Positions 14,384-18,763 are shown, counted from the stretch's first letter. The stretch: 64,000 nucleotides of DNA from Escherichia coli (GCF_016026235.1 NZ_CP065614.1), one strand, 5' to 3'. The notes: generated from the sequence alone by a model not told the origin. Numbers and translations: made by a program.

Positions 14384-15076
14384 GTTCACAGATAAAACAC
14401 TCTCCAGGAAACCCGGGGCGGTTCAGTTTTGTAGTGCACCGTTAATTGCCAGTTCATACCAGATTGTCAGAATGGCTGTAGCTTTACCCGATTCTATGAT
14501 GTATATGAATCCCTGGCAGTCCTGTTAGCATTTGCGGATATTTTTTCCGCTATCTGGGGTAACTGCTCATAGCTGAGTTAAGACAGCATTTATTCATCCA
14601 TCTTGCATGCTCCGTATAATAATTTTTTTACAGATGAAAATTATATCGTATATATTTTAATTATTTGTAGTAAATATTAGATTAAGTATGATTTAATCCA
14701 TGTTGTTTACTTATCATACCCTCTACTAGTTTTTGTAGAACAGAACCGAATACTGCCCTGTGCAGGGAAAATATTATCCAGCGTACAGGAGTTTACTTTT
14801 CTCGGAAATGCATGAAATTTGACAAATATAGAAATCTTATTACAAAATTCATGGAAAAAACTGTGACGTATTTATAAAAAATTGTAAGTCAGTATGTCAT
14901 CATATGTAATGAAATAATATAACCATTGGAATGGAAATGAAATGACGGACAATCATCCTGTTTTACAGGGTGTTGTAATTATAAAAGAGAGTAGGTGGGT
15001 AACAATGGTTGATACAGATCATTACGTACCTTTAAGAACTTTTTACAATATAAAAGTTTTTTTGTGTGATATTATT

Positions 15077-15991
15077 ATGGATAAATTACCTAAAAGTAAA
15101 AGCCTGATGGTTTTTCTTGAAGTCGCCCGTAGTGGTGGGATCATGAATGCTTCAAAAAAACTTAATATCACCCAGCCTACTGTTACCAGAATAATCAGAG
15201 AGCTTGAGAACTATGTAGGAACACCTTTATTCGAGAGAACCTGTTCCGGTGTTTCCCTGAATCAGGCTGGTAATGTTTTTCACGGCAGGGTGTTAAGCTA
15301 TATTAATGGATTGCAAAAATCTATCTCTGAAATCAGAAAGGAGTTTGGAAAGGATAATAAGAAATTCTCATTAGGATATTCATCACTGGTTGGTTATACG
15401 GTCCTTCCTGATGTGATTAATGAGTTTCGGGAACTTAACAGGGATGTATCCATAAGTATTTACGAAGGTCAGTTATCTGATCTGCTTCCCCTTCTTAATA
15501 CTGGTAGACTTGACTGTGCCATCGGAACACTACTTAACGACGAACTGCCTTATGAGTACAGTGCTGAATTGCTTTTCAAAAGCAGTTTCTCTGTATTCAC
15601 ATCAGTACTGAGTCCATACTCGAGGGCAAGAAATTTGCAGGAACTCCAAGAGGCAAAGTGGGTCTTACCGGTAACTTGTTTTGGATATTATAATAACCTT
15701 ACTGAATTTCTTAGAAGAGCAGGAGTGAATATTGATAATGCCATCAGAACAGACTCCATTTCATCAATAATAAACTTGGTTTCCTGTGCTGACTATGTCA
15801 CGGTTCTGGCGAAACCTATGGGTGATGGCAGAAATAAAAAACTGTCTCTGCGGCCAATTCGTATCAAGGAACAATTACCTTCTGCTGATTATTACCTCAC
15901 TTGGAGTAAAAAATATATTCCTTCCAGACTGTTGAGTGAATTTATGCGTATAATAAAAGCACGTTGCTCTGTGAGTGTGTGGGGGGAATAA
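15077..15991 (+). CDS. LysR-family transcriptional regulator
   Basis: Begins MDKLPKSKSLMVFLEVARSGGIMNASKKLNITQPTVTRIIRELE (wHTH) and is 304 aa from this ATG. The track ORF starts upstream, at 14942. Confidence 0.85.
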   Translation: MDKLPKSKSLMVFLEVARSGGIMNASKKLNITQPTVTRIIRELENYVGTPLFERTCSGVSLNQAGNVFHGRVLSYINGLQKSISEIRKEFGKDNKKFSLGYSSLVGYTVLPDVINEFRELNRDVSISIYEGQLSDLLPLLNTGRLDCAIGTLLNDELPYEYSAELLFKSSFSVFTSVLSPYSRARNLQELQEAKWVLPVTCFGYYNNLTEFLRRAGVNIDNAIRTDSISSIINLVSCADYVTVLAKPMGDGRNKKLSLRPIRIKEQLPSADYYLTWSKKYIPSRLLSEFMRIIKARCSVSVWGE

Positions 15992-15996
15992 TTAAA

Positions 15997-16024
15997 GAAA
16001 GCATGCCCTGTCATGCTTTCTTTT
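15997..16024. terminator. Bidirectional intrinsic terminator between convergent genes
   Basis: Perfect 9-bp stem GAAAGCATG / CATGCTTTC (15997-16005 and 12-20) with a 6-nt loop. T-run on the plus side and A-run on the minus side. Confidence 0.7.
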
Positions 16025-16030
16025 CAGTTA

Positions 16031-17200
16031 TTAATGGGTGACGAGGTTAATAAAAATTTGTGCGCCTATCAGCAGACAGTCATCATCAAGGTAGTATGGG
16101 TTTGAATGAAGATAATTATTAATACCTTTCTCCGCGCAACCACTTCCTAGAAAAAACATAGCTCCCTTCCTGTCAGGCACAGCATTAACCATATAGCTGA
16201 AGTCTTCACTAGCGGTCATTGGTTTACAGTGACTGTCAATACGTTGCAGAAAACATGAGGCGCTTTGTATTACTCGCTGAAATGCCTCCTTATGGTTGAC
16301 AACGGCTGGATATCCAGTTGAAACCATTGTTGTTCTGAATCCGCGCAACTTACTTTCAGTTACAATGGATGAGAAATGATTTTTCAGGACTGAATCCGTT
16401 TCTTCGTCCATTGAACGGATGGTTCCTCTGGCCTGAACGTAGTCTGGAACTGCATTGGGTACACTACCGCCATGTATCATTCCGCAGCCAAAGACCGCAG
16501 GGCTGAACGGACTGGTTTTTTTAGCTACAATATAATCAAGATCTGCGATGATTCGTACGGCTTCACGAATAGCATCTAAGCCTTTCTGTGGAGTGGAACC
16601 ATGGGCTGAAACGCCGCCGATATCGAGAGTCCATGCGGCCCCCCAGGAGGACATAATCCCATCATTGATTTTTATAGAGCCAACTTCTATTGAAGCATCA
16701 TTATGAAGGGCGTAAATCTCATCAACGTCGATTACACACCCGCATTCAACCATTTTTTCCGCACCAGGAACGCGCATATCTTCCTCTGCCATCTGGAAGA
16801 TAAACCGGACATTACATTTTAATGCATGCTGGTTTTCGGCCAGAAAACGTGCCGCTGTGAGCGCAATGGCCATGTGTGAATCATGACCACAGTTGTAAGC
16901 CATATTATCATGTACAGAACGGTATTCAGACTCGGTCAGGTCCGGCATTTCCAGTCCATCCATGTCTGCTCTAAAAGCAACTCTTTTTATGTTGTCAGCA
17001 ATATTCAGGTCAGCATGAAAACCGGTAAATCCTGGATACTCAACAACTGAATAACCAAAGGACTGCATCATTTTTTTGCAGTATGCTGATGTTTTATATT
17101 CTTCTCCGGAGGCTTCAGGGATCGTATGGAGATAATGTCGAACTTCTTTACTGAATTTCTCGAGTAGGGATAATTCTTGCGATATTGTATAATCTTTCAT
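16031..17200 (-). CDS. M20-family amidohydrolase (hippurate hydrolase / N-acyl-amino-acid amidohydrolase type)
   Basis: 389 aa. Metal-ligand style motifs CGHDSH, FIFQMAEE and YALHND. Confidence 0.8.
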   Translation of the reverse strand: MKDYTISQELSLLEKFSKEVRHYLHTIPEASGEEYKTSAYCKKMMQSFGYSVVEYPGFTGFHADLNIADNIKRVAFRADMDGLEMPDLTESEYRSVHDNMAYNCGHDSHMAIALTAARFLAENQHALKCNVRFIFQMAEEDMRVPGAEKMVECGCVIDVDEIYALHNDASIEVGSIKINDGIMSSWGAAWTLDIGGVSAHGSTPQKGLDAIREAVRIIADLDYIVAKKTSPFSPAVFGCGMIHGGSVPNAVPDYVQARGTIRSMDEETDSVLKNHFSSIVTESKLRGFRTTMVSTGYPAVVNHKEAFQRVIQSASCFLQRIDSHCKPMTASEDFSYMVNAVPDRKGAMFFLGSGCAEKGINNYLHSNPYYLDDDCLLIGAQIFINLVTH

Positions 17201-17215
17201 AAGCTGTATTAACCT

Positions 17216-17677
17216 TTAAATAATATTCTGAAACTTCAAGATTAACTGTGCGACAACGGCAGCACCAAAAAATGCGCTAGTAAAAACCACAAGGGATACA
17301 ATAACTATTTTCCAACTGAGTGACTTCAGTTTGTCAATACTGTTCCCAACAGACAGACCGGCAAACGCAAGAAGTGGCGTCGTCGTTGCCAAGAAATCTA
17401 TTTTATTGGTCATACTCATAAATATATGACTAACGGGTGAATAAGGCATGCTCAGTAATAAGGCAATCAGTGTTGCCCAAGCAAACGCAGGAAGTGGAAT
17501 TTTGGGTAACCAAATTTTTATTTGAATTGATGCGATAATAACTAGGAACATTACTGCTGCACCTGGTAGAGCATCCACTACTGACATTCCTTTACCAATA
17601 AACTGTGCCAGCAATACCAGAGCGATACAAGGAATAATTATTTTTGTGTTATCTGAAAATGTTTTAATGTCCATCAT
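17216..17677 (-). CDS. Integral membrane protein, small subunit of a putative split permease
   Basis: 153 aa, about 4-5 hydrophobic spans. Lies 12 nt downstream of the 270-aa membrane gene and 15 nt upstream of the amidohydrolase gene. Confidence 0.6.
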   Translation of the reverse strand: MMDIKTFSDNTKIIIPCIALVLLAQFIGKGMSVVDALPGAAVMFLVIIASIQIKIWLPKIPLPAFAWATLIALLLSMPYSPVSHIFMSMTNKIDFLATTTPLLAFAGLSVGNSIDKLKSLSWKIVIVSLVVFTSAFFGAAVVAQLILKFQNII

Positions 17678-17689
17678 ATATACCGTGGA

Positions 17690-18502
17690 TTATTTACGAA
17701 GAAGTTTATAGATGAAGTTGCTCAAGGGAAGGGCAAGAAAGATAAGTGCATACATTCCTGTCACGGCTGCCAGCATATTACTCGTGGCCGCAAAGGCGAG
17801 GATCTGACCAGACATCTCGGGTACAGCATTTGATAAAGAAGCTGATGCGGCTGCCATCATGCTGCCGGAACCAAGTCCACATGCGACAGCTAGGGACAGA
17901 GGATGTAATCCAAATGTGAGTCCTACAGGGCTAATAATGCCAAAGAAAACGGTGCCAAGAACGCTTCCGACAATATAAGTTCCAAGTACCCCCGTTCCCT
18001 CTGGGCTATTGATACCATACTTTTCACCAATAACTCCCAGTGATGGTTCCCGTGAAATACTGGAGCAGGCACCAACGGCCTCTCTGCGCATTCCCAATAA
18101 AATAGCGAGCGGCATAGCAATTAATACAGATGCTAAATTACCTAATTCCTGAAGGATTAGCGCTGGCCCGGCCTTGATAACCTCAGAAACATTGGGGCCA
18201 ACCAAGGTGCCGTATTTTACCCCGAGTGGTAATAATGATATCATCACTATGTTTCCGGTTTTTTTAATCGCGTCATGATTAAGTATATTACCCAGTGGTC
18301 TGATATATTTTCCGATTAAATCAGGTGTCACAAGAACACCAATAATAACGGCGTACAACATGGGTAATAGACTAAAGTTGACACCAAGGGCTGAGACCTT
18401 AATAACACCAATGCTTTCTGCTATTACAGTTATAATCCCTGCGGTAACGAATATTACACCTGATGACTTGATTAGCTTTAAAGTTTTCATAAACAGGCTC
18501 AC
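17690..18502 (-). CDS. Integral membrane protein (DUF3100-like by recollection), large subunit of a putative split permease
   Basis: 270 aa, glycine-rich and hydrophobic throughout. First gene of the minus-strand operon. Confidence 0.6.
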   Translation of the reverse strand: MSLFMKTLKLIKSSGVIFVTAGIITVIAESIGVIKVSALGVNFSLLPMLYAVIIGVLVTPDLIGKYIRPLGNILNHDAIKKTGNIVMISLLPLGVKYGTLVGPNVSEVIKAGPALILQELGNLASVLIAMPLAILLGMRREAVGACSSISREPSLGVIGEKYGINSPEGTGVLGTYIVGSVLGTVFFGIISPVGLTFGLHPLSLAVACGLGSGSMMAAASASLSNAVPEMSGQILAFAATSNMLAAVTGMYALIFLALPLSNFIYKLLRK

Positions 18503-18763
18503 TTGTTAAATTTGTTTTAAGCCTATCAACAACTATTTGAAAGAATAATTCCTTTTCTTTTTTGGATATACACAACATGTATATCTGAGCGGTTAATATT
18601 GATTCTTATCAAAAAAACACAACAGAGGGTTTCTCATAATATAATGATTAATATGCGATTTTTTTATTGTAGATCTGTATCACAAACTGGGAAGGTACCG
18701 GGTTGTGGAAAACCCGCCCGACGTTTCCTCATGGAATGAACACTGATATGCATCACCTGACAG

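Follow-up and report, generated by a model that had tools for sequence, protein, structure and literature searches.

A 64,000-nucleotide stretch of Escherichia coli DNA (GCF_016026235.1, NZ_CP065614.1), referred to here as the window and used as the source of all coordinates unless another sequence is named, includes an AT-rich block of four intact open reading frames (ORFs) that is probably a substrate-inducible uptake-and-hydrolysis module. The module would consist of a two-subunit carrier, composed of a DUF3100 protein and a 153-amino acid partner, together with an M20D amidohydrolase, and would be under the control of a LysR-type regulator. The regulator gene lies on the plus strand and is followed by three minus-strand ORFs of 389, 153, and 270 amino acids.

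15077 to 15991, plus strand: gene for a LysR-type regulator of 304 amino acids, TdcA-like (HTH_1, E 3.2e-17; LysR_substrate, E 3.5e-26), convergent with the operon.
16031 to 17200, minus strand: gene for an M20D (ILR1/YxeP/hippuricase-type) amidohydrolase of 389 amino acids, third gene of the operon, with Peptidase_M20 and M20_dimer domains.
17216 to 17677, minus strand: gene for the predicted small transporter subunit, a polytopic membrane protein of 153 amino acids and the partner of DUF3100, second gene.
17690 to 18490, minus strand: gene for the predicted DUF3100 large transporter subunit, first gene; 266 amino acids from the ATG at 18490 (the PGAP start) or 270 amino acids from the GTG at 18502.

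A single operon is predicted for the three minus-strand genes because the intergenic gaps are 12 nucleotides, between the DUF3100 gene and the gene for the 153-amino acid protein, and 15 nucleotides, between the latter and the M20 gene. A preliminary description of this DNA had likened the larger membrane protein to DUF3100, correctly so: the Pfam profile DUF3100 (PF11299) matched with 307 bits and an E value of 9.5e-92 over profile positions 1 to 234 of 235, the gathering score being 27 bits. The 153-amino acid protein had no Pfam or NCBIfam match. The same description had seen no likeness of either protein to a classical MFS, ABC, or APC transporter. More than 2000 relatives of DUF3100 were found by a search for them. 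For the small protein, a profile search of 1.84 billion cluster representatives (50% identity) yielded 414 relatives; the identities are 65 to 84% in Enterobacteriaceae and about 54% in Clostridioides difficile, and the conserved motifs are PAFAWAT and TTTPLLAFAG(L/I)SVGN.

The two membrane proteins are encoded together wherever they were compared. A tblastn table of 19 non-redundant loci, spanning Enterobacteria, Clostridia, Fusobacteria, Synergistota, Alphaproteobacteria, and one haloarchaeon, shows the DUF3100 gene directly followed by the small gene, or both fused in the same order, in 19/19 cases. Of the 150 best relatives of the small protein, about 20 are 420 to 490 amino acids long and carry the partner domain at the C-terminus, and DUF3100 was found at the N-terminus in all 10 fusions scanned (Pfam E 1e-62 to 1e-87). 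The finished, PGAP-annotated Klebsiella plasmid pCAV1344-250, for example, includes a 444-amino acid fusion gene, of which residues 4 to 272 are 41% identical to the window DUF3100 protein (E 9e-48) and residues 321 to 441 are 32% identical to the 153-amino acid protein (E 5e-18). Because the gene adjacency is strict and natural fusions are repeated, there is strong evidence, at the level of sequence, that DUF3100 and the 153-amino acid protein form one two-subunit transporter; the split permease proposed in the preliminary description is supported by the same two facts.

The DUF3100 gene and the small gene of the window share a reading frame, with one TAA stop and four codons between them (17678-17692). 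A single base change at this stop would give a fused protein resembling the natural 420- to 490-amino acid fusions. The idea that the 153-amino acid protein is homologous to DUF3100, an internal-repeat notion that originated in a 12-bit Pfam match, was rejected, as the hhalign probability was 0.5%.

The third gene of the operon codes for an M20D enzyme. Its product scored 255 bits with TIGR01891 (M20D amidohydrolase), well above the curated cut-off of 153.75, and passed neither of the equivalog models CpsA (223 bits, cut-off 500) and DoeB2 (208 bits, cut-off 550). The best solved relatives are Bacillus subtilis YxeP (1ysj), a Staphylococcus aureus protein (4ewt), and Arabidopsis ILL2 (1xmb), with E values of about 3e-37. 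In the alignment with YxeP the segments CGHDSH/CGHDFH, QMAEE/QPAEE, and LHN/MHN are paired and the C-terminal His is aligned, so that the metal-ligand motifs CGHDxH, AEE, and HN (Cys-x-His, Glu, His, His) are kept. TIGR01891, the two-domain architecture, and the Cys/His/Glu/His ligand motifs are shared with the M20D aminoacylases YxeP, ILL2/ILR1, the Corynebacterium N-acyl-glutamine aminoacylase, Sulfolobus CpsA, and DoeB2. The enzyme appears to be an ordinary M20D aminoacylase, and its substrate specificity is not transferable from known relatives because every equivalog cut-off is missed. Since it lacks an N-terminal signal sequence, it should act in the cytoplasm.

An M20 gene adjoins the pair in 16/16 informative bacterial loci, which belong to five phyla and include Enterobacteria as well as Clostridia, Fusobacteria, Synergistota, and Alphaproteobacteria; another contig stops before the position could be scored, and the archaeal locus has an aminotransferase in place of the M20 enzyme. 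In six of these bacterial loci, among them those of C. difficile, Halanaerobium, Fusobacterium, Synergistaceae, and Citrobacter, the partner was tested and passed TIGR01891 each time. This neighbourhood analysis supports the functional coupling of permease and amidohydrolase that had been proposed from the window alone. Extra genes were found for an N-carbamoyl-amino-acid amidohydrolase in one Clostridiales locus and for a GNAT acetyltransferase in one metagenomic locus.

Two types of enterobacterial cassette can be told apart. The window and Intestinirhabdus share one of them, with M20 enzymes 75% identical, LysR proteins 62% identical, and a convergent regulator gene. The cassettes of Citrobacter, Escherichia albertii, and Salmonella have a carrier that is 70 to 75% identical, an M20 enzyme that is about 40% identical, a LysR protein that is about 37% identical, and a divergent regulator gene.

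Two neighbourhoods deserve mention on their own. In Klebsiella pCAV1344-250 (locus L021, 1960-7326) the fused gene is near the genes for a LysR protein, an M20 aminoacylase, and an L-serine ammonia-lyase; the presence of the last gene hints that serine could be the amino acid released in this variant. In C. difficile (L013, 6146-12796) the cassette is located about 2.6 kb from a pair formed by an AbgT-family transporter and an M20/M28 peptidase, and two analogous carrier-plus-amidohydrolase units are therefore found side by side.

Every enterobacterial locus with the cassette, and that of Agrobacterium, also has a LysR gene. The ORF of the window regulator is open from position 14942, and the start is probably the ATG at 15077 because in the related plasmid L002 a stop closes the upstream extension and PGAP calls a protein of 304 amino acids. 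The closest named LysR protein is TdcA, the activator of the tdcABCDEFG threonine/serine operon; the identity is 39% to E. coli TdcA and 28% to AbgR. With the NCBIfam TdcA equivalog (NF007667, cut-off 308) the island protein scored 449 bits and E. coli TdcA 649. As this cut-off is passed, PGAP names the gene tdcA in L001, L002, L003, and L023. The gene context is the DUF3100 cassette in every locus seen and never the tdc operon (tdcBCDEFG). Orthology with tdc was rejected in view of the 39% identity and the different operon; judged by its sequence the island regulator is a TdcA-like paralogue, not TdcA, and the name tdcA looks like a systematic over-annotation of a paralogue.

Two regions of the block may have regulatory roles.

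15995 to 16024, no strand assigned: inverted repeat with a perfect 12-bp stem and a 6-nucleotide loop, between the two stop codons; candidate bidirectional terminator.
18491 to 18763, minus strand: AT-rich region upstream of the operon, which holds an inverted repeat at 18565-18585.

The LysR and M20 stop codons are 39 nucleotides apart. The hairpin between them, previously placed at 15997-16024 and described as perfect, was borne out with the slightly wider limits given above. It has a predicted energy of -17 kcal/mol (z = -3.4 versus shuffles), only 4 G-C pairs in the stem, and a T-run inside the stem. By eye the layout consists of an A-tract, GCATG-loop-CATGC, and a T-tract, as expected for a bidirectional terminator whose G+C core is short, and we regard it as a candidate for this function; a consensus terminator scan did not call it. 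The repeat upstream of the operon has the structure GATATACA-N5-TGTATATC, with 8-nucleotide arms and a T-N11-A motif, and is located 75 to 95 nucleotides upstream of the start codon, which makes it a candidate LysR box. Each orthologous upstream region has a dyad of the GATA...TATC type. The sequences of these dyads differ, and no conserved LysR box was found across the orthologous loci. A promoter scan of the region upstream of the operon gave only a weak promoter-like match (18693-18666), and an Rfam search there gave no riboswitch or leader family. In Intestinirhabdus (L004, 5650-5715) approximately nine CTCTGCT heptamer repeats are found about 250 nucleotides upstream of the DUF3100 operon.

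AlphaFold (AF2) models were made from alignments for each subunit separately. The DUF3100 model (pLDDT 80.4, pTM 0.67) includes two short helix pairs, 136-144/147-158 and 197-204/209-222, separated by one long helix (163-192), and the turns of the short pairs are beside the most conserved DUF3100 motifs, S-I-x-R-E-P and G-x-G-S-G-S-M-M. The model of the small protein has 6 helices (pLDDT 74.7). Among the fold matches were OadB, NapA, NHA2, NHE1/3, SbtA, ASBT, and KefC, all of them members of the CPA/AT superfamily. A re-entrant-helix-re-entrant variant of the CPA/AT fold has been described for PSE, LrgAB, and LysO, and families of the LrgAB/LysO type occur either as a large re-entrant subunit with a small subunit of 3 to 4 helices or as fused chains (PMC8396727). 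The DUF3100 model resembles this variant in its secondary-structure pattern, and split large-plus-small and fused forms both exist for DUF3100 and its partner as they do for the re-entrant-helix-re-entrant families, the split form being that of the window and of most loci. The 23 (sub)families covered there do not include DUF3100 (PMC8396727).

At the level of profiles, relatives of the small protein matched 2HCT (PF03390) with 11 to 16 bits (E 0.004 to 0.1), below the gathering score of 26.2 and collinear over profile positions 248 to 360, and the small-protein family matched Lys_export with 15 to 17 bits, below the cut-off of 23.8, over about 45 residues. The DUF3100 protein had no match to the 2HCT (PF03390, CitS) hidden Markov model. 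CitS has two re-entrant hairpins with five helices between them, within an inverted repeat (PMC8396727), and this spacing is not that of the DUF3100 model, which has one helix between the pairs. Taking the models and these matches together, the fold class of DUF3100 is likely CitS/AspT-like, that is, a CPA/AT fold with re-entrant hairpins of the elevator type. The pair would work like a carrier of the CitS/AspT type; it is not assigned here to 2HCT, AAEx, or LysO.

Several differences separate the block carrier from the systems that it resembles. Compared to the 2HCT protein SeCitS (PDB 5a1s) and to AspT (PDB 8y1x), it is made of two polypeptides and has no sequence match above any threshold. 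The substrates of CitS and AspT are small carboxylates or amino acids, and neither carrier is linked to an amidohydrolase. The habit of being split or fused is shared with LrgA/LrgB (E. coli YohJK) and LysO (LysA + LysB forms), whose gene order is small-then-large whereas that of the block is large-then-small; in addition, the block partner has 6 predicted helices and a highly conserved motif of its own.

We infer the direction of transport, its ion coupling, the substrate class, the regulator target site, and the terminator, and propose that the module would function in the following way. The DUF3100 and 153-amino acid proteins would form one secondary transporter of about 420 residues, ion-coupled and with a fold of the CitS/AspT group. 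This carrier would import an anionic amino-acid conjugate with a free alpha-carboxylate, such as an N-acyl, N-aroyl, or N-carbamoyl amino acid; a substrate with a free carboxylate is favoured because M20D enzymes and carriers of the CitS/AspT type both handle carboxylates. The cytoplasmic M20D amidohydrolase would then cleave the amide bond to release the amino acid and the acid, and the TdcA-like LysR protein would sense the substrate or a product and activate the operon, probably at the dyad 18565-18585.

The system nearest in logic is the abgR-abgABT locus of E. coli for p-aminobenzoyl-glutamate utilisation, which combines a LysR protein, M20 amidohydrolases, and a secondary carrier. There the conjugate is imported and then split in the cytoplasm, and we propose that this logic is shared by the block. 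On the other hand, the block carrier is not AbgT and has no ABG_transport match, the block enzyme is 35% identical to AbgA over 160 amino acids and has no match to AbgB (E 0.011), a single enzyme takes the place of the AbgA/AbgB pair, and the regulator gene of the block is convergent whereas that of AbgR is divergent. Orthology with abg was rejected, there being no AbgT carrier and no orthologous AbgA/AbgB pair, and AbgR being 28% identical. The block appears to parallel abgRABT in logic and to be non-homologous to it.

The borders of the block are defined by the following two regions.

14426 to 15076, no strand assigned: non-coding left edge upstream of the LysR gene, with a G+C content of 0.32-0.40; it abuts the right end of IS629 at 14425.
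18764 to 19450, plus strand: right border, a 5'-shortened gene for a ResD-like tyrosine recombinase of 228 amino acids with a Phage_integrase domain.

The AT-rich block encompasses positions 14426 to 18763. Its G+C content is 0.32-0.46 across 14500-18750 versus 0.51-0.59 in the flanks (IS629, 0.51-0.55; recombinase gene, 0.55-0.59), so that the G+C profile and the ORF map confirm the 4.3-kb AT-rich block that had been described between IS629 and the recombinase gene. All the sequence-level statements made about its content also hold, namely the minus-strand operon of 270 and 153 amino acids with a 12-nucleotide gap, followed by the 389-amino acid M20 gene, and the convergent LysR gene. Position 14426 is the exact start of the homology with plasmids L002 and L003, which are free of insertion sequences, and the G+C content falls at the same left edge in L002. 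An Rfam scan of 14426 to 15076 gave no family match.

In L002 and L003 the block is flanked by a full gene for a 268-amino acid ResD-like integrase, located to the left after ccdAB, and by a partial copy of it (6329-7135 and 12340-13017 in L002). The partial copy matches the last 680 bp (3' end) of the full gene with 93.5% DNA identity and corresponds to 18761-19438 of the window, which retains only this copy. The bracketing of the block by an integrase gene and its partial 3' copy in F-type plasmids free of insertion sequences suggests that two F-like plasmids recombined in the resD/rfsF region and that the block arrived in this way. The possibility of transposon-like ends was rejected, as terminal direct or inverted repeats were not found. 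L002 also includes, between the integrase gene and the AT-rich block, approximately 870 bp of DNA of normal G+C content (7136-8000), with no annotated gene, convincing ORF, or Rfam match. Just upstream on the window plasmid is pgtA-pgtB-pgtC-pgtP, a complete Salmonella-type phosphoglycerate transport system (about 5650-13034; pgtP, 11670-13034), whose PgtP scored 884 bits against a cut-off of 750. It is a further piece of metabolic cargo not usually associated with pINV.

Copies of the block at 99-100% identity were found in 11 E. coli plasmids in PLSDB and in 7/5426 complete E. coli genomes. Every E. coli copy is plasmid-borne, with 0 chromosomal copies in the 5426 complete genomes, and most of the host plasmids are IncFIA/FIC plasmids of 230 to 295 kb. 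The plasmid closest to the window is a pINV-type plasmid of enteroinvasive E. coli (EIEC), because it carries virF, ospE2, ipaH genes, and senB. Two other hosts are ordinary F-type plasmids, one from a mouse isolate and one from a swine isolate. Close copies were absent from records named Shigella, and a paper on the plasmid of O96:H19 EIEC (PMC7283534) does not mention the module. The horizontal acquisition suspected at first sight is supported by the AT-richness and the plasmid-only distribution, and the absence of close copies under the name Shigella supports the position of the block outside the classical pINV gene set.

The M20 gene, intact in the window, is broken by IS600 (H2/H13) or IS1 (H5), or not annotated (H6), in several EIEC plasmids, and the module is being lost in some EIEC lineages. 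Codon differences between the window and two F-type plasmid variants are 38 synonymous and 11 non-synonymous, and the excess of the former indicates purifying selection on the block genes. The cassette is also chromosomal in Citrobacter, E. albertii, and Intestinirhabdus and is part of the core genome of C. difficile, where the small-subunit protein is listed in 18671 blocks of an assembly collection and is consequently very common. On the E. albertii chromosome (L026, 4889-8582) a cassette with a divergent LysR gene is found between yajR and the cyoABCDE operon, in the manner of a small chromosomal islet.

A number of observations speak against the uptake-and-hydrolysis module. A Foldseek search of the DUF3100 model against PDB found no match (best E 0.5); sequence searches of PDB with either membrane protein, or with the profile of either, gave nothing meaningful, with no solved or named relative; and hhalign of both profiles with E. 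coli LysO, YohJ, YohK, YeiH, and GltS gave probabilities of 2% or less. The literature searched has no mention of DUF3100, PF11299, or the three RefSeq protein accessions. The carrier is 70 to 75% identical between the enterobacterial cassette types while the M20 enzyme is only about 40% identical, and for this reason the specificities of transporter and enzyme may not be tightly matched. Exporters (LysO) and exchangers (AspT, CitP, MleP) are found among the relatives of the carrier in its fold group, so that it may not be an importer. Finally, the M20 gene is broken by IS600 or IS1 in some EIEC plasmids, and the module is therefore dispensable in its EIEC host.

The fold-group relatives bring up the alternative that survives best, that the two subunits together act as a precursor/product exchanger, or export a product of the M20 enzyme, and are not a simple importer. 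AspT exchanges aspartate for alanine, CitP and MleP exchange citrate or malate for lactate, and LysO exports lysine, which makes exchange or export a real alternative. We nevertheless consider it unlikely, because catabolic uptake is what operons typically serve in which a LysR gene is grouped with the genes for a carrier and a cytoplasmic amidohydrolase, abgRABT being an example, and because the Lys_export matches cover about 45 residues with scores below the cut-off.

Somewhat less likely still is that the block is silent or decaying passenger DNA in the EIEC plasmid, brought in with the F-type backbone and of no benefit to the host. Its presence in so few complete E. coli genomes, the interrupted or unannotated M20 gene of several EIEC plasmids, surroundings rich in insertion sequences (IS629 and the shortened recombinase gene are adjacent), and the finding of only weak promoter-like matches would fit such an origin. 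Against it, all four ORFs are intact in the window, synonymous differences between plasmid variants far outnumber non-synonymous ones, and the chromosomes of Citrobacter, E. albertii, and Intestinirhabdus and the core genome of C. difficile retain the same cassette.

That DUF3100 transports alone and the 153-amino acid protein is an accessory or regulatory membrane protein instead of a part of the carrier is very improbable: although the two proteins have no mutual homology and the structural matches of the small one are non-specific, the gene adjacency is strict and in the same order in all loci including one archaeon, single-polypeptide fusions recur across many lineages, the most conserved motif, TTTPLLAFAGxSVGN, resembles the broken or re-entrant helices of carrier cores, and the matches to 2HCT positions 248-360 are collinear.

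With the uptake-and-hydrolysis module retained as the preferred interpretation, the contribution of this work can be delimited. DUF3100 was already known as a Pfam entry, and public annotations of the block genes read "DUF3100 domain-containing protein", "hypothetical protein", "M20 family metallopeptidase", and "TdcA". What this work adds is the partner family, the fusions, the likely fold class, and an M20D linkage that is nearly universal. We propose, tentatively and with less conviction than for the module itself, that DUF3100 and its partner of about 150 amino acids found a new two-subunit carrier family of the CPA/AT type for amino-acid conjugates, which would work with M20D aminoacylases and give gut anaerobes and enterobacteria a widespread, hitherto unrecognised route to conjugates from the host or the diet. 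Hippurate-like N-aroyl, N-acyl, and N-carbamoyl amino acids would be the candidate substrates.

For EIEC and Shigella, the block is probably not a virulence factor; it serves as a marker of recently assembled, still conjugative pINV plasmids of the F type. The label tdcA given by PGAP is flagged as a systematic misannotation. For DUF3100 itself the analysis supplies a likely fold class, a tight M20D partner, and a make-up of either two subunits or one fused chain, and with them a testable hypothesis. The cassette is carried by, among others, C. difficile (many assemblies), Fusobacterium, Citrobacter, E. albertii, and some EIEC plasmids. Because the cassette is present in very many C. difficile assemblies as well as in Fusobacterium, Citrobacter, and E. 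albertii, its substrate could be a gut metabolite of wider interest.

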